Shown here piece by piece: positions 22,361-39,654 of a stretch of 39,654 nt of DNA; position 1 is the stretch's first letter; each line of letters begins with the position of its first letter. The translations under genes and the position numbers were made by a program. The notes below the pieces were generated by a model. It was not told where the DNA came from. It saw nothing but the letters and a program-made list of their open reading frames with translations, and searched no databases. The stretch lies in assembly GCA_021731095.1 (NCBI GenBank), contig JAKFYA010000251.1:1-39654 (forward strand), given 5' to 3'. The stretch is from Acidobacteriota bacterium (GTDB lineage: Bacteria > Acidobacteriota > Vicinamibacteria > Vicinamibacterales > UBA2999).

Positions 22361-22381
22361 CGCTCGCCGCTGAAGGTCAGG

Positions 22382-22861: not shown

Positions 22862-22912
22862 GCGTGTCCTCCGAACCCCGGTTGCCAGGCGACGCGGTAG
22901 AATCGCGAGCAC

Positions 22913-23257: not shown

Positions 23258-23294
23258 GCGGGCCGCACCGCGGCGACACGGCCGTCGCATATGA

Positions 23295-24662
<1,368 letters not shown>

Positions 24663-24665
24663 CCC

Positions 24666-25094
24666 ATGAAGGTCAAGATGACCCTCGTCGGACTGTTCCT
24701 GGCCTTCCTCGTCATCCAGTGGTATCCGTACGCCCACGATCACAAGAATCCGCGGGTCGTGGCTGAACCGGCGTGGGACTCCCCCATCACGCGTGAACTG
24801 GCCCGCCGCGCCTGCTTCGATTGCCACAGCAACGAAACGGTGTGGCCCGTCTACGCGCGCTTCGCGCCTGTCTCCTGGCTGGTTTACCACGACGTGATGG
24901 AGGGCCGGGAGAAGCTGAACTTCTCGGAGTGGAACAGGCCACACAAGGAAGCGGGCAAGTCTGCCGACGAAATCCGCGAAGGCGAGATGCCGATGCCGCT
25001 CTATCTGCTCATGCACAGCTCGGCCAAGCTGAATGCGGCCGAGCAGCAGGCGCTCATCTCCGGCCTCGAGAAGACGCTCGGCACCGGCAAGTAG
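24666..25094 (+). CDS. haem-binding-domain protein (single CxxCH, membrane anchored)
   Basis: N-terminal TM helix, a CFDCH haem c motif, and a ...SEW...EGEMP... pattern like the Haem_bd family. Confidence 0.7.
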   Translation: MKVKMTLVGLFLAFLVIQWYPYAHDHKNPRVVAEPAWDSPITRELARRACFDCHSNETVWPVYARFAPVSWLVYHDVMEGREKLNFSEWNRPHKEAGKSADEIREGEMPMPLYLLMHSSAKLNAAEQQALISGLEKTLGTGK

Positions 25095-25182
25095 GCACAA
25101 CACCGCGCTCCAGGTCCCATGACAGGCCTGGATGTCAGCACCAGCTCAGTTCAGATGTGTGGGAGAGGTGTGGCCAGTCGCG

Positions 25183-25212
25183 CCGACCCGGACTTCGAGA
25201 ACTCCGGGTCGG
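25183..25212. terminator. 10-bp-stem hairpin (CCGACCCGGA / TCCGGGTCGG, 10-nt loop) between convergent genes
   Basis: Read directly. Lies between the stop of 24666-25094 (+) and the stop of 25311-25511 (-). Confidence 0.45.
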
Positions 25213-25310
25213 ACACACTGGTACCCGCGCGGCACCGAGATGTCCGATGTCAGCGGAAAAACGGCGCGGAAGAGCCCGGTTGGACCCGGACGCGCCTCTT
25301 GAGGGGAGAA

Positions 25311-25511
25311 CTACTCGGGCTTGACGTTCTCGGCGCGCGGGCCCTTGGGACCACGACCCACATCGAACGTCACCGACTGACCTTCACGCATCTCATCGAA
25401 CCGCACAACCACACAGGCCGACTGATGAAAGAAGTACTCGTTGCCGTCGCCGGACTCAATGAAGCCGAATCCCTTATCACGAATCATGCGCTTGATCTTG
25501 CCGTTTGCCAT
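25311..25511 (-). CDS. cold-shock domain protein (CspA family, 66 aa)
   Basis: KGFGFI and YFFH motifs. Confidence 0.9.
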   Translation of the reverse strand: MANGKIKRMIRDKGFGFIESGDGNEYFFHQSACVVVRFDEMREGQSVTFDVGRGPKGPRAENVKPE

Positions 25512-25627
25512 CGAAGCTCTCCAAGACTATGTCGTACGCCTACGGTACTGTAGCGCGGGCCGGGTCCTAAAGCACGCAATAAAGGCAAGCAGCCGTTGAT
25601 GGCATCATGTGGGGCGAGGAGCCGTCC

Positions 25628-27028
25628 ATGTTCACCCGTTCGCATCTGCGCGCGCTGACCGCCACGTTCTGTCTCGGGATTGTCCTGCTGTCGACCGGAG
25701 TCTCGGCACAGTCACCCACGCCGGTCGCCCCCCCCAAGAACAAGTACAAGCCGGCTGACGACGTCCGCCTGGGACGCGAGGCCGCCCAGGAGATCCTGAA
25801 GCAGACGCCGCTCCTCACCGACGCGTCTCTGCACGGCTACCTCGAACAGCTCGGCCGGCGCCTGGTGGGCGTGATTCCGGTCCCGCTCCAGCAGAAGGAG
25901 TTCGTGTACACCTTCGACGTGGCGGACATGGCCGACCTGAACGCCTTTGCCCTGCCAGGCGGACCGATGTTCGTCCACCGCGGCATCATGAAGGCCTCGA
26001 AGAACGAGGGCGAGCTGATTGGCGTGATGGCGCACGAGCTGAGCCACGTCATCCTCCGCCACGGCACGGCGCAGCAGACCAAGGCCGAAAAGTTCCAGCT
26101 TGGCGCACTCGCCGGGCAGGTCATTGGCTCGGTGGTCGGAGGTGCGGCCGGCAGTCTCATCGCGCAGGGCTCGAGCTTCGGCGTCAATACCTACTTCATG
26201 AAGTTCAGCCGCGACCACGAAAAGCAGGCCGACATTCTCGGCGCGCAGCTGATGGCGAAGGCCGGCTACGACCCGCGCGACATGGCGTCCATGTTCCGCA
26301 CACTCGAAAAGGAAGGCGGCCCGAGTGGCCCGCAGTGGCTGAGCAGCCACCCCAACCCAGGGAATCGCGCCGTCTACATCACGGCAGAGGCACAGGCCCT
26401 GAAGGTCGCCGAGGGGTTGCGACCCAACGCCGCGGCCTTCGCAGCCATGCAGACCCGGCTTGCGTCGCTCCCGCCAGCGGCCGGGCCCAGAAAGGCCGCC
26501 GCTGCGCCCGCCGCGACAACTTCACCCAGACCTGCCACCTCCATCGAGCCGCCATCGTCGCAGTTCCGCGGCTATCGGGCGCCGTCGGGCCTGCAGATCA
26601 GCGTGCCGGCCAACTGGCAGCCGCCAGCCGGCGGCTCCGCCCTGATGTTCGCCCCACAAGGCGCGTTCTATCAGCAGGGCAACAGCACGGGCTTCACCCA
26701 CGGTGTCGAGGCTGGCATTTCGACCAGCCAGAACGCGGATCTCCAGCGCGACACACAGGCCTTGCTGCAGGGACTGATGCAGACCAACCCGAAGCTGCGG
26801 CTCAACGGCGGCTACCAGTCCACGGCAGTCGGTGGACGACCGGGCCTGGCGGCGACCCTGTCGAACCTGTCAGAGGTGACCGGGCAGCCGGAGTACATCG
26901 CGGTCTTCACGACGCGCCTCCGCGACGGGAACCTGTTCTACCTGATCGGCGTGGCGCCCGACGCCCAGGCTGGTCAGTATGTCGATGCGTTCGCCCGGGT
27001 GCGCACGTCGCTGAAACTCAACGACTGA
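25628..27028 (+). CDS. secreted M48-family zinc metallopeptidase with uncharacterised C-terminal domain
   Basis: Signal peptide MFTRSHLRALTATFCLGIVLLSTGVSAQ and the HELSH zinc motif in GVMAHELSHVILRHG. Confidence 0.85.
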   Translation: MFTRSHLRALTATFCLGIVLLSTGVSAQSPTPVAPPKNKYKPADDVRLGREAAQEILKQTPLLTDASLHGYLEQLGRRLVGVIPVPLQQKEFVYTFDVADMADLNAFALPGGPMFVHRGIMKASKNEGELIGVMAHELSHVILRHGTAQQTKAEKFQLGALAGQVIGSVVGGAAGSLIAQGSSFGVNTYFMKFSRDHEKQADILGAQLMAKAGYDPRDMASMFRTLEKEGGPSGPQWLSSHPNPGNRAVYITAEAQALKVAEGLRPNAAAFAAMQTRLASLPPAAGPRKAAAAPAATTSPRPATSIEPPSSQFRGYRAPSGLQISVPANWQPPAGGSALMFAPQGAFYQQGNSTGFTHGVEAGISTSQNADLQRDTQALLQGLMQTNPKLRLNGGYQSTAVGGRPGLAATLSNLSEVTGQPEYIAVFTTRLRDGNLFYLIGVAPDAQAGQYVDAFARVRTSLKLND

Positions 27029-28823
27029 CCACCGGGCTCCCAGCCGGAACGCCGGCCGGAAGGGTCGCCCGGGCTGGCACCGGGCGGCGCTCGCCGATCT
27101 GCTGGCGCCACATCGCGTAGTAGAGACCCTTCTGCTCGAGCAGGGCCGCATGGCTGCCCGACTCAATGACCCTGCCCTGCTCCAGGACGAAGATCCGGTC
27201 GGCGTGCATGATGGTCGACAGTCGGTGCGCGATGAGGATGGTCATCACGTCCTGACTGGCGGCCACTTCGCGGATGGTGGCGCCAATCTCTTCCTCCGTC
27301 AGCGAATCGAGCGACGACGTCGCCTCGTCGAAGACCAGCAGGTGCGGGTGCCGCAGCAGCGCCCGCGCAATCGAGAGGCGCTGTTTCTCGCCTCCCGACA
27401 CCTTGACGCCGCCTTCGCCAATCACCGTGTCTAGTCCCTGACTCGCCCGCGCGAGCAGCGTGTCACAGGCCGCCTTGCGGAGCACCGCCAGGCAGTCCTC
27501 GTCGGTGGCAGTGGGATTCACGAACAGCAGGTTCTCCCGGATGCTCCCGGCAAACAGCTGGGTGTCCTGGGTGACGAAGCCGATGCGCTCGCGCAACTGG
27601 TTCAGGTCCACGGTCGCCGCGTCGTGGCCGTTGTAGAGAATGCGCCCGGCCTGGGCCGGATAGAGCCCCACCAGCAATTTGACCAGCGTCGTCTTGCCTG
27701 CCCCTGACGGGCCGACAAACGCCACCGTATCTCCCTGACGCAGGTCGAACGAGATGTCGGTCAGCGCCGGAGACGATGCCGTCTGATGGGTGAAGCCGAC
27801 ACCCTGGAACGCCAGCGTCCGGAGTTCCGGCACCGCCGCGGGGTTGTCCGGCCGCGGCTCGACCGGCATGGCCAGAATGTCCTCGAAGTTCTTCAGCGAC
27901 ACTTCGGCTTCGCGGTAGATGTTGATGATGTTGCCCAGCTCCTGCAGCGGGCCGAAGATGAAGAACGAGTAGATGAACAGCGAGAAGAACTGGCCGACGG
28001 TGATCTCCCGGGCAAAGATCAGATAGAGCATCAGGAACAGGATGCTCGTGCGCAGGAAATTGACAGTGGTGCCCTGAATGAAGCTGAGGCTGCGGATGTA
28101 GCGCACCTTCTTCAGCTCAAGCTGGAGAATCCGGTCCGTGGTGGTATTGAGCCGGGCAATCTCCTGCGCCGCCAGGCCCAGGCTCTTCACCAGCTCGATG
28201 TTCCGGAGCGACTCGGTGGTGGACCCGGCCAGCGCGGTCGTCTCGGCCACGATGACCTTCTGGATCGTCTTGATCTTCCGGCTCAGCACGGAGCTCAGCA
28301 CGCCCAGCACCGGCACGGTGAGGAAGTACACCGGCGCGATGGCCCAGTGCACCGTGAAGGCATAGCTCACGACGAAGATGATGCCCACCAGCGAGGTGAA
28401 GAGGATGCTGATGGACGCGGCAATCAGCTTCTCGACATCAGCCCGCACCTTCTGGAGCTTGCCCAGGGTTTCTCCGCTCCGCTGGTCCTCGAACACCGCA
28501 TAGGGCAGCTCGAGCGAGTGGCTGATGCCATCCGAATAGATCCGGGCCCCGATCCGCTGCGTGATGACGTTGATGAAGTAGTCCTGGAAGTTCTTGGCCA
28601 CGCGTGACACGAAGGCCACGCCGACCGCCGCCGCCAGCAGCAGGCTGACGCCCCGGAAGAAGTCACGGGTCGAATACTGGTCGAAGCGGGTGGCGTACTC
28701 GTCGATGACGTGCCTGAAGATCAGCGGGTCAAGCAGCGAGAAGACCTGGTTGATGGCCGCCAGGACCAGCGCCAGCGTCACCAGGCGCCAGTAGTCCTTC
28801 AGATAGGCGAGCAGCAGTCTCAT
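27018..28823 (-). CDS. ABC exporter half-transporter (fused TMD-NBD, MsbA-like topology), 601 aa
   Basis: Six-helix TMD followed by GPSGAGKTT, VSGGEKQRLSIARAL, LLVFDEATSSLD and IAHRLST. ATG 28823 (MRLLLAYLKDYW); the track ORF extension to 29654 is rejected. Confidence 0.9.
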   Translation of the reverse strand: MRLLLAYLKDYWRLVTLALVLAAINQVFSLLDPLIFRHVIDEYATRFDQYSTRDFFRGVSLLLAAAVGVAFVSRVAKNFQDYFINVITQRIGARIYSDGISHSLELPYAVFEDQRSGETLGKLQKVRADVEKLIAASISILFTSLVGIIFVVSYAFTVHWAIAPVYFLTVPVLGVLSSVLSRKIKTIQKVIVAETTALAGSTTESLRNIELVKSLGLAAQEIARLNTTTDRILQLELKKVRYIRSLSFIQGTTVNFLRTSILFLMLYLIFAREITVGQFFSLFIYSFFIFGPLQELGNIINIYREAEVSLKNFEDILAMPVEPRPDNPAAVPELRTLAFQGVGFTHQTASSPALTDISFDLRQGDTVAFVGPSGAGKTTLVKLLVGLYPAQAGRILYNGHDAATVDLNQLRERIGFVTQDTQLFAGSIRENLLFVNPTATDEDCLAVLRKAACDTLLARASQGLDTVIGEGGVKVSGGEKQRLSIARALLRHPHLLVFDEATSSLDSLTEEEIGATIREVAASQDVMTILIAHRLSTIMHADRIFVLEQGRVIESGSHAALLEQKGLYYAMWRQQIGERRPVPARATLPAGVPAGSPVVSR

Positions 28824-28850: not shown

Positions 28851-31487
28851 ATGGTCTTGTCTGACCGTGACGCAATGACCTCGCCCACCGGTTCCCGCAC
28901 CAACGGCAAATTCCTCGACGTGGATGGCCGGCGCTTCCTGGTCAAGGGCGTCACCTACGGCACGTTCGCCCCGGACGCGACCGGAGGCCAGTTTCCAACG
29001 CTGGCACAGATCGACCGCGACTTCGGCCTGATGGCCGCTGCAGGTGTGAACACGGTCCGCGTGTACACCGTCCCCGCTCCCGAGTTGCTGGATACGGCCG
29101 CCAGCCACGGCCTGCGCGTCATGATTGGGGTGCCCTGGGCCCAGCACATCGCCTTTCTGGGCGACCCGGCCCTGACCCGGAGCATCCGCGAACAGGCCGC
29201 CACCACCGTCCGGACTCTGGCCAGTCATCCCGCCACGCTGATGTTTGCGGTCGGCAACGAGATTCCGGCCTCTGTGGTGCGCTGGCACGGCCAGGAGCAG
29301 ATCGAGCGTTTCCTCGGCGAGCTGTATGACGCCTGCAAGCAGGCCGCGCCGGACAGCGTCCTCACCTACGTCAACTTTCCGCCCACCGAATATCTCGACC
29401 TCGAGTGCTTCGACGTCTGCAGTTTCAACGTCTATCTGCACCGGGAAGCCGACCTGCGTGCCTATCTGGCCCGGCTGCAGCACCGGGCCGGCTACAAGCC
29501 GCTGCTGCTGGCCGAGGCTGGCGCCGACAGCATTCGCGAGGGTCTGGACGGCCAGGCGCGCATCACGGCCAATCACATCCGCGCGGCGTTCGAGGAAGGC
29601 GCCTGCGGCGCCGTTGCCTTTGCGTGGACCGACGAGTGGTGGCGCGGTGGACACACTGTTGAGGACTGGTCCTTCGGACTCGTGGACGTGGCCCGTGAGC
29701 CGAAGCCGGCCCTGCCCGCCGTCTCCGCGGCATTTGCCCAGGCCCCCTTCTCAGACGAGGCGCGCGCGACCTGGCCCAGGACATCCGTCGTGGTCTGCGC
29801 GTACAACGCGGCGGACACCATCGACGACTGCCTGGCATCGCTCGAACAGCTCACCTACCCGAACGTCGAACTGATCGTGGTCAACGACGGCTCGAAGGAC
29901 GCCACGGGCACCATCGCGCGCCGGTATCCGACGGCCCACGTCATCGACATTCCGAATGGCGGCCTTAGTGCCGCGCGCAACGTGGGTCTGGCCCACGCGA
30001 CCGGCGAGTATGTCGCCTACACGGACGCCGATGTCCGGGTGGACCCTGACTGGCTGACCTATCTGGTGCAGCCCATGTTGTCAGGCGCGTTCGCCGGCTC
30101 GGGCGGTCCCAACGTGGTGCCACCGGAGGACGACTGGGTTGCCCAGTGCGTGGCCCGCTCACCGGGCGGCCCGACCCACGTCCTGCTCGACGACCGGGTG
30201 GCCGAGCACGTGCCTGGCTGCAACATGGCCTTCCGGCGCGACGCGCTCAATTCGATTGGCGGCTTCAACCCGGTCTACCTCCGCGCCGGCGACGACGTGG
30301 ACATCTGCTGGCGCCTCCAGGCGCGCGGTCTCCGCATCGGCTTTGCGCCGTCCGCTCTGGTCTGGCACCACCACCGCGCCACCGTCTCGGCCTACTGGCG
30401 TCAGCAGGTCGGATATGGCGAAGGCGAGACCTGGCTCGACGCACACCACCCCGAGAAGTTCGTTGGCGGCCAGGCAACGTGGCGCGGGCACATCTACAGC
30501 CCGCTGCCGTTTCTCCGCTCCTTCAAGGGCAGCCGCGTGAACACCGGCGTCTGGGGCACCGCCGCCTTCCCGTCCATCTACAGCGACGACGCCTACCGTC
30601 TGGAATATCTGCCGCACACGCCGCTCTGGCTGGGCGTCTCGCTGGCGCTCATCCTGGGTGGCGCGGTCGGTGTCGGTTTCCGCGAGGTCTTCGGCCTGTT
30701 GGCCCTGCTGGCCGGCCTTGGCGGCTGGGCCACCACCATCTCCCGGTGCATCACGTTCGCCCGGCGCTCGAACCTGCATGGCCTCCCGGACATCGGCACC
30801 CGGACGCACGCCCAGAGCCGGCTGATGTATCAGGGCCTGATCGCCTGGCTCCACATCATTCATCCGCTCGCGCGCCTGCGGGGCCGGCTGCGCGGCATGG
30901 CCGAGATGCCCCATGCCGTGTCCTCCGAGCACGTCATGCGACGGCCCTGGAAGATACCCTTCCCCTTGCCGGACGACCTCCGCCGCGCTGCCAACCTCAT
31001 TCTGTGCCGCACCGACGAGCGCGCCTTCTGGAGCGAGAACTGGGTGGCCCATGGCGAGGTACTGACCGAGCTCATCGGCGTGCTGCGTGCCGCACGGCCT
31101 GCACCGGTCATCGATGTGGACGAGGGCTGGCGGCAGGACCGCGACATCAGCCTGGCCGTCGGCCGCTGGGGCTGGCTGCACGTCAGCGCACTGGTCGAGG
31201 AGCACGCCGCTGGCAAGTGCCTCTTCCGCATCGCCACCCGCCTGCGCCTCAGCTTCATTGGCACCCTGCAGGCGCTGAGCGTCGCGCTGCTGCTCTCCTT
31301 CGGCAGCGTCGCGCTGATGTCGCTGCATCGCCCCTCCGGCCGCCTGCTCTCGGCGGTGGCCTTCGGCGTCCTGGCTATCCGCACGGCCTGGCAGACCATC
31401 CGCATCACGGCTGTCCTCGACCGCGCCATTCTGCGTACGGTTGGCGCGTCCGGCATGATGCCACTTCCCCCGACGCCGAAGGCCTGA
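28851..31487 (+). CDS. three-part fusion: clan GH-A (TIM-barrel) glycoside hydrolase-like domain, family-2 glycosyltransferase, and a C-terminal membrane region (878 aa)
   Basis: - GH part: VGNEIP (E137, nt 29259-29261) and LLAEAG (E222, nt 29514-29516).
- GT2 part: VVVCAYNAADTI, NDGSKD, YTDADV, GDDVDICWR and YWRQQVGYGEGE.
- Hydrophobic helices at roughly nt 30625-30745 and 31265-31400.
The start at 28851 is uncertain; 28875 is the alternative. Confidence 0.8.
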   Translation: MVLSDRDAMTSPTGSRTNGKFLDVDGRRFLVKGVTYGTFAPDATGGQFPTLAQIDRDFGLMAAAGVNTVRVYTVPAPELLDTAASHGLRVMIGVPWAQHIAFLGDPALTRSIREQAATTVRTLASHPATLMFAVGNEIPASVVRWHGQEQIERFLGELYDACKQAAPDSVLTYVNFPPTEYLDLECFDVCSFNVYLHREADLRAYLARLQHRAGYKPLLLAEAGADSIREGLDGQARITANHIRAAFEEGACGAVAFAWTDEWWRGGHTVEDWSFGLVDVAREPKPALPAVSAAFAQAPFSDEARATWPRTSVVVCAYNAADTIDDCLASLEQLTYPNVELIVVNDGSKDATGTIARRYPTAHVIDIPNGGLSAARNVGLAHATGEYVAYTDADVRVDPDWLTYLVQPMLSGAFAGSGGPNVVPPEDDWVAQCVARSPGGPTHVLLDDRVAEHVPGCNMAFRRDALNSIGGFNPVYLRAGDDVDICWRLQARGLRIGFAPSALVWHHHRATVSAYWRQQVGYGEGETWLDAHHPEKFVGGQATWRGHIYSPLPFLRSFKGSRVNTGVWGTAAFPSIYSDDAYRLEYLPHTPLWLGVSLALILGGAVGVGFREVFGLLALLAGLGGWATTISRCITFARRSNLHGLPDIGTRTHAQSRLMYQGLIAWLHIIHPLARLRGRLRGMAEMPHAVSSEHVMRRPWKIPFPLPDDLRRAANLILCRTDERAFWSENWVAHGEVLTELIGVLRAARPAPVIDVDEGWRQDRDISLAVGRWGWLHVSALVEEHAAGKCLFRIATRLRLSFIGTLQALSVALLLSFGSVALMSLHRPSGRLLSAVAFGVLAIRTAWQTIRITAVLDRAILRTVGASGMMPLPPTPKA

Positions 31488-31492: not shown

Positions 31493-33316
31493 ATGCGGGA
31501 GTTCTCCTGGAGCCTCGCGTTTCTCAGGCCGTATCGAGTCCGGGTGTTCGGCATTGCCGCGCTCGCCCTGGTCGAAATTGGTCTGGCCGCGCTGGCGCCC
31601 TGGCCGATGAAGGCCATCGTCGACAACGTCTTCGGCCGCCAGCCGTTCCCACCCGCGCTGGCCGGGCCGGTCAACACGCTCACTGGCGGACGCGTGGTAG
31701 CGTTGCTCATCGTCGTGGCGCTGGCCGGCCTGCTGCTGCAGCTCCTCCTCGAAGTCGTGCGCGCCGTACATACGCAGATTCAGGTGGATACAGGCCAGCG
31801 CATCGTGTACGACCTGCGCGGGCGGCTGCTCGAGCATCTGCAGGCCCTGCCGCTCAGGCACCACGTGCTGGGTCGCACCGCCGACAGCGTCTACCGCCTC
31901 GACGCAGACGCGTACTGCGTCAACGACCTGGTCATCGGCGGCGTTTTCCCGCTGGCCACGGCGGCCCTGAACCTGACGGTCATGTTTGCGGTGCTGGCAC
32001 GGCTCGATACACCGCTCGCCCTGCTGTCCCTGGCCGTGGCACCGTTCCTCTATGTCTCGCTGCGGTACTACTCGCGCACGATGACCGATCGGGCCGAACA
32101 GGTGAAGTCGCGCGAGTCCACACTGGTCGAGCGGGCGTACGAAATCCTGTCCTCCATCGCCGCCATCAAGAGCTTCGCCCGCGAGCGTCACGAACTGTCG
32201 CGCTTCGCGCGCACCGGCAACGACACGATGGCCGCACGCCTGACGCTCACGTGGCAGGAGTCGCTCTTCTCCGTGTGCGTCACGGCCATCACCCTGACCG
32301 GGACGGCCCTGGTGCTGGTGGTCGGCGGGCTTCACGTCATCGACGGCACCCTGACCGTGGGCGGGCTTCTGGTCGTCATCGCCTATCTGGCGGCCGTCTA
32401 CAACCCGTTGTCTTCCATCGCGCACACCACCGGCGCCCTGCAGCAGGCGCGCGTCAGCGCGCGCCGCGTGCAGGAACTGCTGGCGCTGGCGCCCGAACAG
32501 CTTGACGCGCCTGACGGTGTGGATGCCGCTGGCATCGCCGGCCACATCGAGTTCAAGGATGTGGGCTTTGCCTACGACGCCAGCCGGCAGATCCTCGATC
32601 AGATCAGCTTCGTGGCCCATCCGGGCGAAATGGTGGCGCTGGTCGGCCTGACCGGCGCAGGCAAGACCACCCTTGCCAGCCTGATTCCGCGCTTCTTCGA
32701 ACCGACGCATGGCCAGGTGCTGATAGATGGCGTCGAGGTGCAGCGCTATCGCCTGCGCTCGTTGCGCGAACGCATCGCGCTGGTGCCACAGGAATCGGCC
32801 CTCTTCGGCGGCACCATCGGCGACAACATCCGGTACGGCCGGCTCGACGCCACAGACGCGGACGTCGAGGCTGCCGCCCATCTGGCCCACGTCCACCACT
32901 TCATCGAGCGTCTGCCCGGTCGCTACGACACGCCGGTGGCCGAAGCCGGGGCGACGCTCTCGGGCGGCGAACGTCAGCGTCTCGGCATTGCCCGCGCCCT
33001 GCTGAAGAACGCGCCCATTCTCATCCTCGACGAACCGACGTCCTCGCTGGACGCCATCTCCGAGGATGCCGTGTTCCAGGCGCTGCGGCGTCTGCGCGAG
33101 GGCCGCACGACCATCGTCATCGCGCACCGGCTCTCCACCATCCGCGATGCCGACCGCATCCTCGTGCTGCACGAAGGGCGCGTCATGGCCCAGGGGACGC
33201 ACGACGAGCTGACCGCCTCCAACGAACTGTACCGCCGCATGTGTGCCCGACTCTCCGTGGGCCGTTCGCTCGACGAACCAGAGTCCGTGGACGAGATGCT
33301 GAAGGCGCTGGCGTGA
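31493..33316 (+). CDS. ABC exporter half-transporter (fused TMD-NBD), 607 aa
   Basis: GLTGAGKTT, LSGGERQRLGIARAL, ILILDEPTSSLD and IAHRLST. Sits 5 nt after the upstream stop. Confidence 0.9.
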   Translation: MREFSWSLAFLRPYRVRVFGIAALALVEIGLAALAPWPMKAIVDNVFGRQPFPPALAGPVNTLTGGRVVALLIVVALAGLLLQLLLEVVRAVHTQIQVDTGQRIVYDLRGRLLEHLQALPLRHHVLGRTADSVYRLDADAYCVNDLVIGGVFPLATAALNLTVMFAVLARLDTPLALLSLAVAPFLYVSLRYYSRTMTDRAEQVKSRESTLVERAYEILSSIAAIKSFARERHELSRFARTGNDTMAARLTLTWQESLFSVCVTAITLTGTALVLVVGGLHVIDGTLTVGGLLVVIAYLAAVYNPLSSIAHTTGALQQARVSARRVQELLALAPEQLDAPDGVDAAGIAGHIEFKDVGFAYDASRQILDQISFVAHPGEMVALVGLTGAGKTTLASLIPRFFEPTHGQVLIDGVEVQRYRLRSLRERIALVPQESALFGGTIGDNIRYGRLDATDADVEAAAHLAHVHHFIERLPGRYDTPVAEAGATLSGGERQRLGIARALLKNAPILILDEPTSSLDAISEDAVFQALRRLREGRTTIVIAHRLSTIRDADRILVLHEGRVMAQGTHDELTASNELYRRMCARLSVGRSLDEPESVDEMLKALA

Positions 33317-34431
33317 AGATCGTCCTTGCGGGCATCATTGCCCGCTATCCGTACGGTGGCGTCACGTGGTGCTCGCTGATGTACCTGCTCGGCCTGCGAG
33401 CGCTGGGCCACGAGGTCTGCTACATCGAAGACACAGGGGAGTGCGTCTACGATCCGGTGCAGAACGCCATCTCGACAGACCCGGCCTACGGCACCACCTA
33501 CATTCACCAGTCGCTGGAACCGTTCGGTCTCGGCGACCGCTGGAGCTTCGTCAACTACGACGGGTCCTACCACGGCGCATCCCGCGAGACCGTGCGCCGC
33601 TGGTGCGCCGATGCGGACCTCTTCGTGAACCTGTCGGGCGGCTCGTGGTTCTGGCGCGACGAGTACGCCGCCATCCCGCGCAAGGTCTTCATCGACTCGG
33701 ACCCGGTGTTCACGCAGCTCGCCATTGCCAAGGGTGAGGCCTGGTACGTCGACTTCTTCCGCAGGTTCGACCATCACTTCACCTTCGGCGCCAACATCGG
33801 CACCCCTGCCTGCGCGGTGCCGACCGGCGGCTTCACCTGGCACCACACCTGGCAACCGGTGGTGATGGACCAGTGGGCGAACTCCACCCCACCCGGTGAC
33901 CGCTTCTCGACGGTGATGACCTGGAAGATCGAGAGCTTTGCCGATGTGGGCGGCAACAAGGATCAGGAGTTCGTGCGCTTCATCGACCTCCCGTCGCGCA
34001 CGCCGAGCCGGTTCGAGCTGGCGATCAACGGCCCCCAGGCCCTGCTACAGCAGCATGGATGGGCCACCGTGGATGCGATGGGCGTCTCGCGCTCCCTCTG
34101 GGACTATCGCGCCTTCATCCAGCGGTCCCGTGCCGAGTTTGGCGTGGCCAAGCACACCTACGTCGCGCATCGCTCCGGGTGGTTCAGCGACCGGACCGCG
34201 TGCTATCTGGCCGCCGGGCGCCCCGCGCTCGTGCAGGACACCGGGTGGAGCGCACATCTTCCCGCCGGCACGGGGCTGCTGGCCTTCTCGAATCCCGAGG
34301 AGGCCCTGGACGGCCTGGCGCGCATCGAGGCCGACTACGACGCGCACGCCCGCGCGGCGCTGGCCATCGCGCACGAGCACTTCGATGCCGCGGTGGTGCT
34401 GCCGCGCCTGCTGGAGACGGCATGTCAGTAG
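33313..34431 (+). CDS. uncharacterised protein, possibly GT-B fold / CgeB-like (372 aa)
   Basis: GTG start overlaps the ABC stop (GTGA). The N-terminus KIVLAGIIARYPYGGVTW...GHEV and the C-terminal SDRTACYLAAGRPALVQDTG are reminiscent of GT-B Rossmann halves. I cannot name a family with confidence. Confidence 0.5.
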   Translation: MKIVLAGIIARYPYGGVTWCSLMYLLGLRALGHEVCYIEDTGECVYDPVQNAISTDPAYGTTYIHQSLEPFGLGDRWSFVNYDGSYHGASRETVRRWCADADLFVNLSGGSWFWRDEYAAIPRKVFIDSDPVFTQLAIAKGEAWYVDFFRRFDHHFTFGANIGTPACAVPTGGFTWHHTWQPVVMDQWANSTPPGDRFSTVMTWKIESFADVGGNKDQEFVRFIDLPSRTPSRFELAINGPQALLQQHGWATVDAMGVSRSLWDYRAFIQRSRAEFGVAKHTYVAHRSGWFSDRTACYLAAGRPALVQDTGWSAHLPAGTGLLAFSNPEEALDGLARIEADYDAHARAALAIAHEHFDAAVVLPRLLETACQ

Positions 34432-35468
34432 ACCGACCGCTGCGCATTGCCCAGGTGGCACCCGTGGCGCAGCCCGTTCCGCCCCCGCGTTCGGGTTCCA
34501 TCGAGACCCTGACGGCACTCCTGACCGATGGGCTGGTGGCCCGCGGCCACGACGTCACGCTGTTTGCCACCGGCGGGTCGCGCACCAGTGCCCGGCTCCA
34601 CGCGGTGTACCCCAAGGGGTATCGCGAGAACCCGGCGCTGTGGCCCTGGGAGCTGTGCGAGCTGTTCAATCTCTCGGCGGCGGTGGAACGCGGCGCGCAG
34701 TTCGACATCATCCACTACCAGGCCGAGTACTCGCCGCTCTCGCTGGCCTACGCCGGCCTGTCGGTCGCCCCGGTTCTCCAGACCATCCACCACATGCCAA
34801 CGGAGTCGGAGGTCGCTCTCTGGCGCCAGTATCCGGAGGCCCCCTTCGTGGCCATCTCCCACGAACAGGCCAGGGCACTCACCGGACTGCGCGTGACCGG
34901 CGTGGTCCATCACGCTGTCGACACCAGCATCTACACGTTTCAGCGCGACCCGCAGGACTACCTCCTGTTCCTCGGACGGTTCACCGAAGGCAAAGGGGTC
35001 CTCCGCGCCATCGAAGTGGCCCGTCAGACCGGACACCGCCTGATCATCGCGGCTGCCGAGAACGACTACTACCGCGAGCACGTGGCTCCGCTGGTGGACG
35101 GACGACAGATTGTCTATGTCGGCGAAGTGGAACTGCGGGAGAAGGTGGCGCTGCTCGGCGGCGCCCGCGCGCTGCTCTACCCGGTGCAGGCCGGCGAGCC
35201 GTTCGGCCTGGTGCTGGCCGAGGCGATCGCCTGCGGGACGCCAGCCGCCGCCCTGCGACTGGGCGCCGTCGGTGAGTTGATCGACGACGGTCTCACCGGC
35301 ATGGCCTTCTCGTCGCTGGACGAGCTGGTGCACGGCCTTCCCCAGGTGCTGGCACTCGATCGCGCGGCGGTGCGTACCCAGGCGGTCGCACGGTTCGGCG
35401 TGAGCCGGATGGTCGACGAATACGAGGCGACCTACCGCGCCCTGACGACGGCCGGGAGCCGGCTGTGA
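34422..35468 (+). CDS. GT4-family (GT-B, retaining-type) glycosyltransferase
   Basis: LRIAQVAPVAQPVPPPRSGSIE...GHDVTLFA N-terminus and the EPFGLVLAEAIACGTP nucleotide-sugar binding motif. 10-nt overlap with the upstream gene. Confidence 0.85.
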   Translation: MSVDRPLRIAQVAPVAQPVPPPRSGSIETLTALLTDGLVARGHDVTLFATGGSRTSARLHAVYPKGYRENPALWPWELCELFNLSAAVERGAQFDIIHYQAEYSPLSLAYAGLSVAPVLQTIHHMPTESEVALWRQYPEAPFVAISHEQARALTGLRVTGVVHHAVDTSIYTFQRDPQDYLLFLGRFTEGKGVLRAIEVARQTGHRLIIAAAENDYYREHVAPLVDGRQIVYVGEVELREKVALLGGARALLYPVQAGEPFGLVLAEAIACGTPAAALRLGAVGELIDDGLTGMAFSSLDELVHGLPQVLALDRAAVRTQAVARFGVSRMVDEYEATYRALTTAGSRL

Positions 35469-36253
35469 CGGCCACTGCAGGCACACGGCCCGATGCCGGA
35501 CGGTCGCTGCTCGCCGTCTTCGCCCATCCGGATGACGAGTCCATCGCCTGCGGCGGTCTCCTCGCGTGGTGCGCTGACCGTGGTGCCCGCGTGTCGGTGC
35601 TGTGCGTGACCCGTGGCGGCTACGGCGCCGGTGACACGGCGCCGGCACATCAGGCCCGTCGGACCGCCGAGCTTCAGGCGGCCGCGGAGCACCTCGGCCT
35701 GGCGGAGGTGGACGTGCTCGACTACCGGGACGGCTATCTGCCCTGGGAGGACCGCCCGGCGCTGGTCCAGGACATCCGCTCGACCATCGCACGCCTGCAG
35801 CCGGAGGTGGTGGTGACCTTCGGCGCGGACGGGCTCTACTGGCACCCGGACCACATCGCCGTACACGAGGCCACCACGGCCGCCGTCGGCGCCCTCGGGT
35901 CTCAGGCCCCGGCACTCTTCTACGTCACGTCTCCACCGGGCCAGATGCGGCTCGTCCTGGACGCGGCACTGGCCGCCCACTCGCGGCGGTCCGAGGGCCA
36001 CGCGCCCCGGAGTATTCTCGGCATCACGGCTGTGGAGGCCTTCGGCTCGCACGCGGAACCCCCGACGCTGGTGGTGGATGCCACGGCCTATGCCGCCCGG
36101 AAACTCGCCGCGCTGCGGTGCCACCAGACGCAACTGGCTGGCGACGCGCTGGACCTGCTCCCCGGTGACCAGGCGCATCTGCTGGGCGTGGAGCACTACC
36201 ACCGGGCCGCGACCGGCGCCACCGGGGTCACTTTCATCGAGCGACTTGCCTGA
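35465..36253 (+). CDS. PIG-L / LmbE-family de-N-acetylase
   Basis: AVFAHPDDES and HPDH zinc-site motifs. GTGA overlap with the upstream gene. Confidence 0.85.
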   Translation: MTATAGTRPDAGRSLLAVFAHPDDESIACGGLLAWCADRGARVSVLCVTRGGYGAGDTAPAHQARRTAELQAAAEHLGLAEVDVLDYRDGYLPWEDRPALVQDIRSTIARLQPEVVVTFGADGLYWHPDHIAVHEATTAAVGALGSQAPALFYVTSPPGQMRLVLDAALAAHSRRSEGHAPRSILGITAVEAFGSHAEPPTLVVDATAYAARKLAALRCHQTQLAGDALDLLPGDQAHLLGVEHYHRAATGATGVTFIERLA

Positions 36254-37524
36254 TGCACATCACGCTGCTGGACCTGCTGCGCTGCCCGTTCTGCGGGGGA
36301 CGCCTCACCCTGGAAGACAACGCCGCACTGACACGCACCGGCGATGAGGTGGACACCGGCGTGGTCTGGTGCGAGTGTTGCGCCTTTCCGGTGGTCGGCG
36401 GCATCCCGGTGATGCGCGCCGACGACACGACGCGCCGGGCTATCCACCAGCTCGAGGCCGGCGACCACGCCGAGGCACTGGCCACGATGCTCGACGTCGG
36501 CGACGAGCGACGCGCGGACTTCGACGCGCTGCTGGCGCGAGGCGCGGCCGCCACCTACCAGGACGCCATCGCCGTCCTGAGCCCGGACCCGGAGGGCACC
36601 TATTTCGTCTACCGGTTCTCCGACCCGACCTTTGTCATGGCCGACGCGGTGCTGCGGGCGCTGGCCCAGGCTCCTGGCGCCTATGCGGGGCGGGTGCTCG
36701 ACATCTGCGGCGGGTCCGGACACCTGACGCGCACGCTGTGCGCCCTGCGGCCTGACCACGAGGTGGTGCTGGCCGACATGTTCTTCTGGAAGCTCTGGCT
36801 GGCCCGCACCATCACGGCGCCGCGGTGCCAGCCGGTGTGCTGCGATGGCAACCAGCCGCTGCCCTTCGCCCGCGGGAGCTTTCCCGCCGTCGTGCTGTCC
36901 GATGCCTTCCCCTACATCTGGCAGAAGCGCATGCTGGCCGAGGAGATGATGCGCGTGGCCGGCGACGACGGGCTGGTGGTGATGCCGCATCTGCACAGCT
37001 CGCTTGGCGAGAACTTTTCCGCCGGGATGACGCTGACGCCCGAGTCCTACCGGAATCTGTTCCTCGCACTGGAGCCGCGCCTGTTCGCCGACCAGGCGCT
37101 GCTGACGCAGGCCATCGAGGGGCGCGGGCTGGACCTCAGCCGTCCGCAGTCCCCGGAGGAGCTCGGGCACGAGCCCTCCTTCACGCTGATTGCCACGCGC
37201 CAGTCGCGCGTGTTCCGCCACTACGAACCGCTCTCGCCGGGACTGGTGGCGGGCGTGTTGCGCGTGAACCCGCTGTACGAGGTGACGCGCCGGGGCTGGG
37301 CGACAGAGCTGACCCTGCGGTTTCCCAACGAGGAATACGCGGAGGAGTTCGGCGAGTGCCGGCGCTATCTGCCCGACACGCTGACGCTCGACGTCGACCT
37401 GACCGGGCCCCTCGCGGACGCCGGGGCGCTGTCCCGCATTGATGACCTGCGCCGGCGTCGGGTGCTGCTGGACGTGCCGACGCGCTATTGTGGCGGCGCC
37501 GACAGGGCGGCCACCGGGTCGTAG
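36253..37524 (+). CDS. Trm112-like zinc-ribbon fused to a class I SAM-dependent methyltransferase, plus a ~170-aa C-terminal extension
   Basis: LLRCPFCGG...WCECCAFPVVGGIPVM (Trm112/UPF0434-like) followed by motif I VLDICGGSGHL. TGATG junction with the upstream gene. Confidence 0.75.
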   Translation: MHITLLDLLRCPFCGGRLTLEDNAALTRTGDEVDTGVVWCECCAFPVVGGIPVMRADDTTRRAIHQLEAGDHAEALATMLDVGDERRADFDALLARGAAATYQDAIAVLSPDPEGTYFVYRFSDPTFVMADAVLRALAQAPGAYAGRVLDICGGSGHLTRTLCALRPDHEVVLADMFFWKLWLARTITAPRCQPVCCDGNQPLPFARGSFPAVVLSDAFPYIWQKRMLAEEMMRVAGDDGLVVMPHLHSSLGENFSAGMTLTPESYRNLFLALEPRLFADQALLTQAIEGRGLDLSRPQSPEELGHEPSFTLIATRQSRVFRHYEPLSPGLVAGVLRVNPLYEVTRRGWATELTLRFPNEEYAEEFGECRRYLPDTLTLDVDLTGPLADAGALSRIDDLRRRRVLLDVPTRYCGGADRAATGS

Positions 37525-38633
37525 GGGGACACCGAGCCGATGTGACGGCCCACCCACTCCTGAATCACGACGTCAGGATGCTCGGCCTCGATGGTGGGCA
37601 GGTCGACATTGCTCTGCCAGAGATACACGGCCCGACTGAAATGCTCTGACAGAAACGGCACCAGCGCGGACCCGAACGAGTCCCGGAACACGACCGCACG
37701 CGGCAGCGCGCCGTCCCGGGTGGTCACAATGCGCTCCACTTCGTCGGTCGGCCGTGTCTCCGGCGGCTCCACGACGCGTGCGTGCCGCGGTTCGCGCGGC
37801 ACCAGCACCAGGTCCTCCTCGCGCAGCACGCTGCGCAACCCCAACAATCTTGCCAGGTCCTTGCCAGGCACCATGACGCTGCGCGCCTCGAATTCCAGGC
37901 GGCCCTTGGTCGGCACGCCGCCGGAGAGGCGCAGGCTGTCCATGATCTGCTGGTAGGCGAAGAACGCGCCGCGCGCGTTCCAGTGCGTATCGGTCCGGTG
38001 GTACAGGCGATCGAAGGCCTTGGCCGCCGCCATCGGCAGCCGTGGGTCGACCACGGTCACCGTTGAGCGCTCGCGGAGGTAGGTCACGAGCTGATCGATA
38101 CGCGTGGTCGCACCGATGCGCTGGATCCCGGCGGGCAGGTACTCGGGGTAGAGCACATGCTTGTCGGGCCCGATCACGAACACGAAGCGCACGCCCCGGG
38201 CGGCCAGCCAGTCGTGCGTGTGCTGGAGGGTCAGCCGCCACGCCTCCAGCTCCGCCGTCGTCATGGGTGGGTCTGCAGCAAAGTCGGCGACCGACTCCTC
38301 GTCGGCATAGAACAGCCACCCGTCGCGTCCCAGCATCACGTCCCGCGTGGTGGCCGTGTGGAGCCCCTTCACGCGCAGCAGGGCCTGCCACCGCACCAGA
38401 GGCGTACGGAACGCGAAGTGATCGGCGAAGTACCGGGTGAAGCCCTCGGGCCAGGCCGCCAGGTCCGCCCAGGTCAGACTGACGGCCGGGAACGGCGCCG
38501 GCTTCCGGTGCTCCTCGGTCAGGGCCGCGCGTCCGATCCCGGCAACCGTGCCGACCAGCGGCACGGCCAGCGCCAGCACAAAGAGCACCACCAGCAGCCC
38601 GTCCAGACGTCGCGTGAGGTGTGGCAGGTCCAT
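37485..38633 (-). CDS. AlgJ/AlgX-like (SGNH-like, DTHW motif) polysaccharide O-acetyltransferase, N-terminally anchored
   Basis: TM anchor LLVVLFVLALAVPLV, the HRTDTHWN motif and FRDSFG. The stop lies 40 nt inside the converging methyltransferase gene. Confidence 0.75.
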   Translation of the reverse strand: MDLPHLTRRLDGLLVVLFVLALAVPLVGTVAGIGRAALTEEHRKPAPFPAVSLTWADLAAWPEGFTRYFADHFAFRTPLVRWQALLRVKGLHTATTRDVMLGRDGWLFYADEESVADFAADPPMTTAELEAWRLTLQHTHDWLAARGVRFVFVIGPDKHVLYPEYLPAGIQRIGATTRIDQLVTYLRERSTVTVVDPRLPMAAAKAFDRLYHRTDTHWNARGAFFAYQQIMDSLRLSGGVPTKGRLEFEARSVMVPGKDLARLLGLRSVLREEDLVLVPREPRHARVVEPPETRPTDEVERIVTTRDGALPRAVVFRDSFGSALVPFLSEHFSRAVYLWQSNVDLPTIEAEHPDVVIQEWVGRHIGSVSPYDPVAALSAPPQ

Positions 38634-38634: not shown

Positions 38635-39654
38635 TCAGAACCGGAAGTAGATGAACGGGCTGAAGGCCCCGGCAGCGACCTGCGTCAGAGACGCGCCAAA
38701 CAGCGCGGCGAGCGCCACGACGACGGCGGCCGCCCACCCGGCCGGCAGCACACGCGCCTCGCGGCCACCTGCGGTGGCAGTGGACAGTCGCGCAAGCAGG
38801 CGCGGCACGATCGGCGTGGACCCGATGAGGGCGGCGGCGACCACGAGCAGCAGTTCGGGCGTGAGATACCAGGACGGGGCGAGCGCCGTCGGCGCGTGGC
38901 CGCCCGCACCGGCCATGGCCCGCAGCAGGTGCCACGCCTGCGTGACCGACCCGGCGCGGAAGAGCACCCAGCCGATCACAACGACGAGCAGCGTGTAGCC
39001 GCGTCCCACCACGACCGGCAGACGCTCCAGCCGCGCTCCGAGTCCCGCACGCTCCAGCACCAGGAAGAGGCCGTGCAGCAGCCCCCAGAGCACGAACGTC
39101 CAGCTGGCACCGTGCCAGAGGCCGCACAGGAAGAAGATGGTGACGAGGTTGAGATACACCCGTCCCGTCGAGCGACGATTGCCGCCGAGCGGGATGTAGA
39201 CGTAGTCGCGGAACCAGGACGAGAGCGAGATGTGCCATCGTCGCCAGAAGTCCTGCATGGACGTGGCCGCGTAGGGATACCGGAAGTTCTCCGGGAAGGT
39301 GAACCCGAACATGTGCCCCAGACCGATGGCCATGTCCGAGTAGCCCGAGAAGTCGAAATAGATCTGCAGCGTGTAGCAGATCGCACCAATCCAGGCGTGG
39401 GCCGCCGAGACCTGATCGACCGGCATGCCGAAGATGGCATCTGCAGGGCCGCTGACCAACCCGGCGACCAGCGTCTTCTTGGCCAGACCGACGATGAAGC
39501 GGCGCACGCCGAGCGCGAAGCCGCTCTTCGTGTGGGTGCGCCTGCCGATCTGCGCGGCAATCTCCCGATACCGGATGATCGGACCGGCAATGAGCTGGGG
39601 AAAGAACAGCAGGTACAACGTGGCGCCGACGGGCCCCTTCTGGGCGACGGCCTG
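38635..39654 (-). CDS. MBOAT-family membrane O-acyltransferase (AlgI/PatA/DltB-like); 5' end outside the window
   Basis: FFPQLIAGPI and FWRRWHISLSSWFRDYVYIPLGGNR (conserved His). The frame stays open upstream of the track start to position 39654 (QAVAQKGPVGATLYLLFF). A 1-nt gap separates it from the AlgJ-like gene. Confidence 0.85.
   Translation of the reverse strand, partial: QAVAQKGPVGATLYLLFFPQLIAGPIIRYREIAAQIGRRTHTKSGFALGVRRFIVGLAKKTLVAGLVSGPADAIFGMPVDQVSAAHAWIGAICYTLQIYFDFSGYSDMAIGLGHMFGFTFPENFRYPYAATSMQDFWRRWHISLSSWFRDYVYIPLGGNRRSTGRVYLNLVTIFFLCGLWHGASWTFVLWGLLHGLFLVLERAGLGARLERLPVVVGRGYTLLVVVIGWVLFRAGSVTQAWHLLRAMAGAGGHAPTALAPSWYLTPELLLVVAAALIGSTPIVPRLLARLSTATAGGREARVLPAGWAAAVVVALAALFGASLTQVAAGAFSPFIYFRF

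Follow-up and report, generated by a model that had tools for sequence, protein, structure and literature searches.

A predicted clan GH-A barrel fused to a membrane-anchored GT2 glycosyltransferase and encoded with an ABC exporter in Vicinamibacterales and other bacteria

In the textbook synthase systems for cellulose, PNAG, Pel, alginate and Psl, glycan cleavage is genetically tied to glycan synthesis, but the cleaving partner (BcsZ, PelA, the C-terminal domain of PgaB, PslG or AlgL) is a protein of its own, which is exported and works on the chain once it has been translocated. The giant cyclic-glucan synthase Cgs comprises approximately 2,800 amino acids (aa), and its product is exported by an MsbA-type ATP-binding cassette (ABC) half-transporter. 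The cytoplasmic glucanotransferase cyclisation domain of Cgs, a transglycosylase, is located beside the polymerising glycosyltransferase (GT) (PMC10834661), and in NdvB, the 'orphan' BcsA-like cyclic β-1,3-glucan synthase of Pseudomonas and Bradyrhizobium, a glycoside hydrolase (GH) domain of family GH17 that is predicted to be periplasmic is combined with a GT2 domain (PMC10237404). Here, we describe a gene located in a 39,654-nucleotide (nt) stretch of DNA (the window) from an Acidobacteriota bacterium of the order Vicinamibacterales (assembly GCA_021731095.1, contig JAKFYA010000251.1). The encoded protein, termed GH-GT2, appears to represent a widespread, unstudied family of membrane GT2s that carry, on their cytoplasmic side, a fused clan GH-A domain predicted to be catalytically live.

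The open reading frame (ORF; Table 1) contains no internal stop and ends in a TGA codon at 31485-31487. The database gene call begins at M9 (nt 28875), giving a protein of 870 aa, and the picture is unchanged with either start. A start further upstream, which could have supplied a signal peptide, was rejected, as the residues added in frame from a GTG at 28710 are hydrophilic, their codons run into the divergent ABC gene, and homologues share the start position.

GH-GT2 resembles NdvB in that an N-terminal clan GH-A barrel and a membrane GT2 are combined in one polypeptide of similar length (approximately 870 aa), and also in the proposed logic, in which the GT2 makes a β-glucan that a retaining GH cuts or transglycosylates. 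NdvB, however, has a signal peptide, a bundle of transmembrane (TM) helices between its GH17 and BcsA-like GT2 domains and a canonical Q(Q/R)xRW motif, whereas GH-GT2 has neither a signal peptide nor inter-domain TM helices and instead combines a GH157/GH2-like barrel with an MftF-like GT2 carrying QQxGYG, followed by C-terminal TM helices. Judged by sequence, NdvB would be the nearest architectural precedent, while its defining features that were looked for, a GH17 domain and an exported GH, were not found here. The nearest mechanistic precedent would by analogy be Cgs, since in both cases a polymerising GT and a domain that cuts or transfers glycans are placed on the cytoplasmic side; the families involved are nevertheless unrelated (GT84, GH189-type and GH94 in Cgs, GT2 and clan GH-A in GH-GT2), and a cyclic product has no support here. 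Compared with BcsZ and similar enzymes, the GH of GH-GT2 is covalently fused to the transferase and predicted to lie on the same side of the membrane. An earlier note, made from the letters of this DNA, had recognised no characterised member of this architecture; the domain pair and the topology are indeed without parallel, but the logic of joining GH to GT is not, as NdvB and Cgs show.

The assignment of the N-terminal domain, like that of the GT2 domain, is well beyond chance in several comparisons. Pfam Glyco_hydro_2_C (PF02836) matched aa 20-229 with 33.4 bits against a cut-off of 21 (E 3e-8), accompanied by a weaker GH72 match. A single-sequence phmmer search of PDB sequences returned GH158 (E 1e-8) and the 537-aa entries 9fz9/9g4n (E 2e-8, aa 18-269), which according to the Foldseek descriptions represent the GH157 enzyme of Labilibaculum antarcticum (LaGH157) crystallised with laminaribiose and laminaritriose, 9g4n being the E224A mutant. 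In this alignment, E222 coincides with E224 of LaGH157, the position at which 9fz9 reads TEFG and 9g4n reads TAFG, and N136-E137 falls on the N-E motif of LaGH157, while a segment following strand 8, DxWW(K/R)GG, is common to both proteins (TDEWWRGG here, ADGWWKGG in LaGH157). A profile of the N-domain, built from 18 diverse family members and run against PDB sequences, returned the following: GH157 (9fz9) was found over the whole barrel (aa 13-271) with an E-value of 9e-22 at 17-19% identity, followed by GH2 β-galacturonidase and β-glucuronidases (E 1e-15 to 1e-11), GH158 (E 2e-8) and GH72 β-1,3-glucanosyltransferases (E 7e-7). Of the 18 individual N-domains, 17 matched GH2_C and 11 matched GH72, whereas GH17 (PF00332) was matched by none of them at E<=0.01 and not by the full protein at E<=1.

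Structure prediction led to the same families. An AlphaFold2 (AF2) model based on 83 sequences reaching down to 33% identity, with a predicted local distance difference test score (pLDDT) of 88.7 and a predicted template modelling score (pTM) of 0.79, superseded an earlier, poor model based on 26 close homologues (pLDDT 67). Strands and helices alternate over aa 15-297 in the manner of a (β/α)8 TIM barrel, with pLDDT mostly above 90, and an N-E acid/base after strand 4 and a glutamate nucleophile after strand 7 are found as in clan GH-A. When the model was submitted to Foldseek, GH157 again ranked first (E 1e-14), and GH2, GH5_18 and GH158 barrels were also retrieved, down to E 1e-11. The multi-domain architecture of GH2 was not found, as only the barrel family PF02836 was matched and the barrel begins at approximately aa 14, leaving no room for the N-terminal GH2 domains.

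By profile and predicted fold, the N-domain thus appears to be a genuine barrel of clan GH-A, the clan that the earlier note had proposed from two short motifs. Its position is intermediate between GH157, GH2, GH158 and GH72, and it is predicted to carry all hallmarks of a retaining β-glycosidase or transglycosylase (R70, N136-E137, N193/Y195, E222 and W263). It would be assigned neither to GH17 nor, on architecture, to GH2, and a placement in GH157 would be tentative, with significant phmmer and profile matches but the 17-19% identity given above. Both GH157 and GH158 are counted among the β-1,3-glucanase families (PMC10637969), and GH158 uses a retaining mechanism with Glu143 and Glu229 as the catalytic pair (PMC13195107). 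The nearest relative of solved structure is the GH157 endo-β-1,3-glucanase. With GH157, GH158, GH2 and GH72 enzymes the N-domain shares the (β/α)8 fold and the aligned N-E acid/base and glutamate nucleophile, but none of these enzymes has a glycosyltransferase attached, and LaGH157 (537 aa; 9fz9/9g4n/9g5g) and the GH2 enzymes have extra domains, whereas in GH-GT2 only the barrel is present and is predicted to be cytoplasmic. Since the identity of the N-domain to the solved GH157- and GH2-type structures is 17-22%, the substrate cannot be read off from these relationships.

The family is large, and both of its active sites are conserved. With the full protein as query, 7,989 of 8,000 candidates scored had E<=1e-10, and the top 120 relatives were 64-76% identical with an identical Pfam architecture. 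The N-domain alone matched 2,917 clusters (50% identity) at E<=1e-3, of which 476 passed E<=1e-30; most of the full-length matches are 815-900 aa long with the barrel in the N-terminal position, and most carry the GH-GT2 fusion. Named carriers are metagenome-assembled genomes (MAGs) of Acidobacteriota/Vicinamibacterales, Gemmatimonadota/Longimicrobiales and Verrucomicrobiota. Five MAG records titled Bifidobacterium, Bifidobacteriaceae or Dehalococcoidia (L037, L038, L061, L062, L001) also contain GH-GT2 loci, 55-72% identical to this high-GC, Vicinamibacterales-type gene, with a related downstream gene set in all but L001, whose contig is too short; the likely explanation is that these bins are contaminated or wrongly labelled. 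In at least one MAG (JAYZBT01), GH-GT2 is present in two copies (L007, L014). Database names of the relatives are generic ('glycosyltransferase', 'GT2 family glycosyltransferase', 'O-antigen biosynthesis protein'), and full-text literature searches for GH+GT2 fusions, GH157/GH158 and PcManGT yielded no paper on the architecture, which is consistent with the view, already expressed in the earlier note, that the family has no characterised member among the names and literature searched.

In the alignment of 83 full-length sequences, E137, E222, D346, D392 and D394 are invariant. A wider set of 292 sequences, which includes fragments so that the denominators vary per position, retained E137 in 277/283, E222 in 272/277 and N136 in 270/283 cases for the GH domain, and the DxD motif in 223/227 and the GDD motif in 206/209 cases for the GT2 domain, with D346, D392, D394 and GDD all at approximately 98%. 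Residues R70, N136, E137, N193, Y195, E222, D261 and W263 are 90-99% conserved over approximately 280 sequences from several phyla. Both active sites thus appear to be under purifying selection, which argues against a dead binding module.

The region that follows the N-domain was assigned to GT2 in the earlier note, and the searches bear this out: Pfam Glycos_transf_2 (PF00535) matched aa 312-469 (E 3e-33), PF13641 was also matched, and a match to PF13632 reaches aa 602. The aspartate, DxD and (T/G)ED motifs of processive membrane synthases (BcsA, PgaC, HAS, NodC and chitin synthase) are all present as D346, D392xD394 and G480DD, and QQVGY begins 38 residues past GDD, a gap which we take to equal the TED-to-QRGRW spacing of BcsA. 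The Q(Q/R)xRW motif itself is absent, with its arginine and tryptophan replaced throughout the family by G521 (94%) and Y522 (98%), while Q518, Q519, Y522 and G523 are each conserved at approximately 98% in the 292-sequence set. TM helices flanking the GT domain on both sides, as expected for a glycan channel, were likewise not found, all four helices being C-terminal to it. The best curated family for the GT2 domain was NCBIfam MftF (TIGR03965), which covers aa 305-536 with 161.7 bits, ahead of PgaC/IcaA and EpsD. MftF puts a short cellulose-like chain on mycofactocin (PMC7491314). An equivalog assignment would require 280 bits, which GH-GT2 does not reach, and the gene is not surrounded by mftABCDE but by genes for ABC exporters, GTs, a PIG-L protein and a methyltransferase.

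A tblastn search of a plasmid collection gave 417 records, which matched the GT2 part only, none spanning at least 80% of the query. Among them was the megaplasmid of Thermomicrobium roseum with an annotated mftF, neighboured by mftB and mftC, the product of which is 36% identical to the GT2 domain of GH-GT2 over 237 aa. At the QxxRW position this protein reads HRRAAYASSE, compared to WRQQVGYGEGE here, so that both have tyrosine and both lack the arginine. The variant is thus a trait of an MftF-like clade: the earlier note had correctly pointed to RQQVGYG in place of QxxRW, and it does occur throughout the family, but it is not peculiar to it. MftF is the nearest relative of the GT2 domain and shares its Tyr-for-Trp motif, but it has no GH domain, the C-terminal regions of the two proteins show no significant similarity and no mft genes are found near GH-GT2. 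Foldseek placed the GT2 part closest to archaeal PcManGT (6yv7) and BcsA. Based on motifs and model, the domain appears to be an inverting GT2 of the MftF/cellulose-synthase-like clade, and a non-translocating, oligomerising enzyme is plausible given the four exclusively C-terminal TM helices and MftF as best match.

The predicted topology places the two catalytic domains together. A 19-residue Kyte-Doolittle scan found nothing in aa 1-586 and hydrophobic clusters at approximately aa 591-634 and 801-850, and in the 83 aligned proteins, the window protein included, no 19-mer reaches a mean hydropathy of >=1.6 either ahead of the GH domain or in the stretch that joins it to GT2, while nearly all have both C-terminal clusters. 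In the AF2 model the barrel ends at approximately aa 297 and the first GT2 strand begins at aa 311, giving a linker of approximately 10 residues, and in the C-terminal part two helices (591-609, 613-639) are followed by a third, long one (653-685), a small α/β domain (707-800) and a last pair of helices (802-823, 827-866). Lysines and arginines number 1 in the TM1-TM2 loop, 10 after TM2, 4 before TM3 and 4 in the C-terminal tail, a pattern expected from the positive-inside rule if both termini are cytoplasmic (N-in, C-in). Approximately one third of the close homologues are longer (approximately 1,230-1,300 aa; P0023, P0037, P0050, P0068, P0090, P0121 and P0124) and have one more TM helix (approximately aa 882-911) followed by an NHL/TEN_NHL propeller. 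The odd, fifth helix puts this propeller opposite the catalytic domains, which fits a cytoplasmic C-terminus in the short form; the propeller should accordingly be periplasmic if the predicted helices are correct.

GH-GT2 would thus be a bifunctional enzyme anchored in the inner membrane, with both catalytic domains facing the cytoplasm because GT2 needs nucleotide sugars. The earlier note had likewise seen no N-terminal signal or TM helix and two hydrophobic clusters past the GT2 domain, and had placed GH and GT2 on the same, cytoplasmic side; the hydropathy scan agrees, and the short linker, the charge pattern and the long variants lend further support. The motifs it quoted (VGNEIP, LLAEAG, YTDADV, GDDVD at aa 480-484 and RQQVGYG at aa 517-523) are all found where it had located them. 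The insert of aa 635-800, made up of a long basic helix and a small α/β domain with conserved P672, R675, R679 and D765, matched no Pfam family. A PilZ-like domain binding cyclic di-GMP was considered for it because of R675xxxR679 and D765xS767 but found no support, as Pfam PilZ was not matched at E<=1, the two motifs lie 86 residues apart and the predicted fold is α/β and not a β-barrel.

GH-GT2 is the first gene of a translationally coupled six-gene operon, in which the junctions are a 5-nt gap or overlaps. Genes downstream of GH-GT2 were counted in 58 related loci with at least 7 kb of downstream sequence: a gene of the type termed GTx372 was present in 51, an ABC exporter in 49 (84%), a GT4 in 42, a PIG-L gene in 40 and a methyltransferase in 37, and the operon is conserved in most relatives from Vicinamibacterales and Gemmatimonadota. 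Co-transcription with the ABC exporter is indicated by the coupled junctions, by its presence in 49/58 loci and by its recurrence in distant lineages. The NCBIfam scores of the operon exporter (MsbA_rel 412, MsbA 404, glucan exporter 364 and HepA 349 bits) are all below the respective cut-offs and do not discriminate a subfamily.

The most conserved operon partner is GTx372, which is 70-90% identical among Vicinamibacterales and occurs as 1-3 paralogs in the distant lineages L061, L076, L080, L085 and L088. The protein from the window has no Pfam, NCBIfam or PDB sequence match; a PF13524 (Glyco_trans_1_2) tag is attached to some homologues, and the name 'glycosyltransferase family 1' to one, while most are called 'hypothetical protein', and an hhalign comparison with the adjacent GT4 gave a weak match (probability 18%). 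By sequence, GTx372 is probably a divergent GT-B glycosyltransferase. In L085 the order is GH-GT2, ABC exporter and two GTx372-like genes, and in L088, from a groundwater metagenome, a 1,062-aa protein with an extra N-terminal GT2 (P0143, 8001-11189; GT2-GH-GT2) is clustered with genes for another GT2 and for ABC exporters and with three GTx372-like genes. The core trio of GH-GT2, ABC exporter and GTx372 thus recurs in both of these distant loci. In addition, a 1,421-aa ORF (P0165; L087, 1400-5665) was found in which GH-GT2 is in frame with a complete ABC exporter (ABC_membrane and ABC_tran domains) and which is followed by a further ABC gene, a Rosetta-stone type of clue that hints at coupling between GH-GT2 and the exporter.

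Several features of the surroundings are more variable. The convergent AlgX-like/MBOAT gene pair is present at a minority of loci (recurring in L002, L003, L018, L020, L023 and L024) and suggests O-acylation of an exported glycan. The upstream divergent exporter was not found at this position in 80 related loci, so that it is uncertain whether it belongs to the system; it might form a pair with the exporter downstream, or the two might have nothing to do with each other. Further upstream (17702-27028), the window encodes prfA, prmC, phosphoenolpyruvate carboxylase, a GNAT protein, argG, a Haem_bd protein and an M48 peptidase, and because these are housekeeping or otherwise unrelated genes, the glycan operon begins at GH-GT2. 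At L085, a PF10091 'Glycoamylase' gene (1473-2879, minus strand) and a sugar ABC importer are located just upstream on the opposite strand; we take PF10091 to be the family of the GH144 β-1,2-glucanases. A stand-alone paralogous subgroup was also observed, which has no exporter or GTx372 within 10 kb and in which similarity to the query stops at approximately aa 799.

Table 1. Positions in the window of GH-GT2, its predicted parts and the neighbouring genes
Feature	Coordinates	Strand	Basis or remark
Whole GH-GT2 ORF	28851..31487	+	878 aa; alternative start M9 at 28875
Clan GH-A (β/α)8 domain, aa ~14-297, predicted cytoplasmic	28890..29741	+	Pfam GH2_C, profile against PDB, Foldseek
E137 codon, predicted acid/base, N136-E137 motif, VGNEIP	29259..29261	+	Alignment to N-E motifs of LaGH157 and GH158
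E222 codon, predicted nucleophile, LLAEAG	29514..29516	+	Alignment to E224 of LaGH157
GT2 (GT-A fold) domain, aa ~308-535, MftF-like/cellulose-synthase-like	29772..30455	+	Pfam PF00535, PF13641, PF13632; NCBIfam; Foldseek
DxD motif D392-A-D394 (YTDADV)	30024..30032	+	Conservation
G480-D-D-V-D484, at the (T/G)ED catalytic-base position	30288..30302	+	Conservation; 38 residues ahead of QQVGY
Q518-Q-V-G-Y-G523, at the Q(Q/R)xRW position	30402..30419	+	Conservation; MftF has RRAAY here
TM hairpin 1, aa ~591-634	30621..30752	+	Hydropathy; AF2 helices
Predicted cytoplasmic insert, aa ~635-800	30753..31250	+	Lysine and arginine count, AF2 secondary structure, conservation
TM hairpin 2, aa ~801-850	31251..31400	+	Hydropathy; AF2 helices
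ABC exporter half-transporter (transmembrane plus nucleotide-binding domain), MsbA/NdvA-like	31493..33316	+	Pfam; 5-nt gap after GH-GT2 stop
GTx372, 372 aa, possible GT-B (Glyco_trans_1_2-like)	33313..34431	+	GTGA overlap with ABC stop
GT4 glycosyltransferase	34422..35468	+	Pfam/NCBIfam; 10-nt overlap with GTx372
PIG-L family (LmbE/MshB/BshB-like) de-N-acetylase	35465..36253	+	GTGA overlap with GT4
S-adenosylmethionine-dependent methyltransferase, N-terminal Trm112-like zinc ribbon	36253..37524	+	TGATG overlap with PIG-L
AlgX/AlgJ-like SGNH O-acetyltransferase component	37485..38633	-	Convergent; ~40-nt overlap with methyltransferase 3' end
MBOAT (AlgI/DltB-like), runs off the end of the window	38635..39654	-	Accessory, convergent
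Second MsbA-like ABC exporter	27018..28823	-	Divergent, 27 bp from GH-GT2 start

Enzymes of GT2 invert and thereby form β-linkages, and clan GH-A enzymes act with retention on β-linkages and may transglycosylate, as seen for GH17 and GH72. The barrel of GH-GT2 is thus chemically matched to the product of the GT2 domain to which it is fused. The four C-terminal helices, the degenerate QxxRW motif and the MftF-like GT2 favour a short chain on the cytoplasmic face, and a possible sequence of events is that the GT2 domain would make a short β-linked chain at the cytoplasmic membrane face without translocating it, on which the GH domain would then work in cis, making one controlled cut or an en-bloc transfer. 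Depending on the outcome, this could set the length of the chain, release it from a primer, branch it or cyclise it. As free hydrolysis of the newly made chain would amount to a futile cycle, a single cut or en-bloc transfer is more plausible than bulk degradation. The remaining enzymes of the operon would add or modify residues, and the ABC exporter would carry the finished glycan or glycoconjugate across the membrane. It seems quite possible, though we put it forward tentatively, that the glycan is in this way made and tailored in the cytoplasm by GH-GT2 and then exported by the ABC transporter. By analogy, such a system would resemble Cgs together with NdvA/ChvA, or ABC-dependent glycan assembly as for ABC-dependent O-antigen and with PglK, and not BcsA/PgaC with a periplasmic hydrolase.

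A number of observations weigh against this reading. Seven of the 58 loci (L048, L054, L055, L060, L063, L067 and L075), those of the paralogous subgroup, have neither exporter nor GTx372 and are surrounded by unrelated genes, and a verrucomicrobial locus and one other (L081, L082) are also stand-alone, so that export by an adjacent pump is not obligatory. The exporter fusion P0165 is represented on one JGI contig (3300079093) of 6.2 kb, and two neighbouring genes that have lost the stop codon separating them could give such an ORF. That approximately one third of the close homologues have a presumably periplasmic NHL extension is a hint that the enzyme may to some degree deal directly with the periplasm. 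A β-1,3-glucan specificity taken from 17-20% identity would be a lead and not a result, and GH2 enzymes, namely β-glucuronidases and a β-galacturonidase, rank second for the N-domain profile.

An alternative explanation is that the GH domain acts on a substrate other than the chain made by the GT2 domain. It could generate a primer from an existing cytoplasmic oligosaccharide or glycoside, or take a sugar off an intermediate that the GT4 and PIG-L enzymes have built on a lipid or aglycone; in either case the two domains would catalyse consecutive, chemically distinct steps. Pairs such as the GT4 and PIG-L proteins of the operon make GlcN-X cores (mycothiol, bacillithiol, glycosylphosphatidylinositol), and the two showed weak, below-cut-off NCBIfam matches to MshA/BshA and MshB/BshB, respectively; the methyltransferase of the operon is also in line with this explanation, as is the mycobacterial methylmannose polysaccharide system, where primers are provided by a cytoplasmic hydrolase. 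MftF-type GT2s, furthermore, begin on non-sugar acceptors (PMC7491314). The distant loci, however, retain the ABC exporter and GTx372 but not GT4, PIG-L or methyltransferase genes, and the core role of the fusion can therefore not depend on these. The short linker and the high pTM moreover suggest that the two sites act as one unit. We regard this explanation as doubtful, though it deserves to be taken seriously.

A second possibility is that GH-GT2 is a self-contained synthase-translocase, which, possibly in oligomeric form, would use its GT2 domain and four TM helices both to polymerise and to export the chain, as BcsA, HAS or PgaC do, while the GH domain would clear stalled or mis-initiated chains or set their length at the cytoplasmic end. 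The alignment by Foldseek of the GT2/TM part to BcsA and to the 'minimal cellulose-synthase-like' PcManGT fits this idea, the stand-alone loci could be explained by it, and the NHL propeller, found behind the fifth TM helix in approximately one third of the close homologues, might take up a polymer as it leaves the membrane. Only four TM helices are present, however, with none N-terminal to the GT, and glycine and tyrosine replace the arginine and tryptophan of the processive synthases in 94-98% of the members. A coupled exporter is found in 84% of close loci, and one exporter fusion exists. Furthermore, MftF, the closest GT2 family, is not known as a polymer exporter (PMC7491314). Taken together, a synthase-translocase appears rather unlikely.

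The arrangement of the four C-terminal TM helices as two hairpins raises the question of whether the GT2 domain could be a polyprenyl-phosphate sugar synthase of the DPMS/GtrB/ArnC type, which would charge a lipid carrier for periplasmic glycosylation. Archaeal dolichyl-phosphate-mannose synthase has the same two-hairpin arrangement, and weak sequence matches to DPMS and GtrB were obtained, which are confined to the N-terminal half of the GT-A fold. Matches to MftF, PgaC and EpsD are far stronger, however, GDD and the conserved QQxGYG are found at the spacing of cellulose synthases, and a β-glycosidase domain would have no obvious role in such an enzyme, making this explanation improbable. The possibility that the N-terminal barrel has lost catalysis and serves to bind carbohydrate or as a scaffold, the earlier note having raised the option of a binding module, has nothing specific in its favour apart from the existence of inactive GH-like domains elsewhere, and with N136, E137 and E222 conserved at 95-98% and all checked catalytic and supporting residues of the clan at 90-99%, it is very improbable. 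Finally, a topology as predicted for NdvB (GH17+GT2; PMC10237404), with the GH exported to the periplasm and acting on a chain threaded through the membrane, is hardly credible in view of the short linker, the lack of a GH17 Pfam match at E<=1 and the absence, in 83/83 sequences, of a signal peptide, Tat motif or TM helix before the GH domain or between it and GT2.

Within the reading in which the glycan is tailored in the cytoplasm before ABC export, a more specific proposal can be made. GH-GT2 may have arisen, independently of Cgs and NdvB, as a glucan synthase with a built-in transglycosylase, in which a short cytoplasmic β-glucan, possibly β-1,3-linked, would be made by the MftF-like GT2, cyclised, branched or transferred en bloc to an acceptor by the GH157/GH72-like domain and then exported to the envelope by a dedicated MsbA-type transporter, in some cases fused to the enzyme. 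This proposal is speculative and, in the form given here, unlikely to be correct in full.

The arrangement found in GH-GT2 points to another way of setting the length of a glycan chain, releasing it or remodelling it before export, and the protein would be a compact analogue of the giant Cgs. It also offers a tractable single-polypeptide system for studying the cooperation of GT and GH activities, in which the point mutants E137A and E222A could be compared with D392A and D481A. The family is concentrated in phyla that are abundant in soil and freshwater and poorly cultured, i.e. Vicinamibacterales, Gemmatimonadota and Verrucomicrobiota, the envelope glycans of which are, to our knowledge, essentially unknown. 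If the proposal of a built-in transglycosylase were true, Vicinamibacteria, Gemmatimonadota and Verrucomicrobiota would make, in abundance, a glycan of the periplasm or cell surface that belongs to a class of its own and is new.

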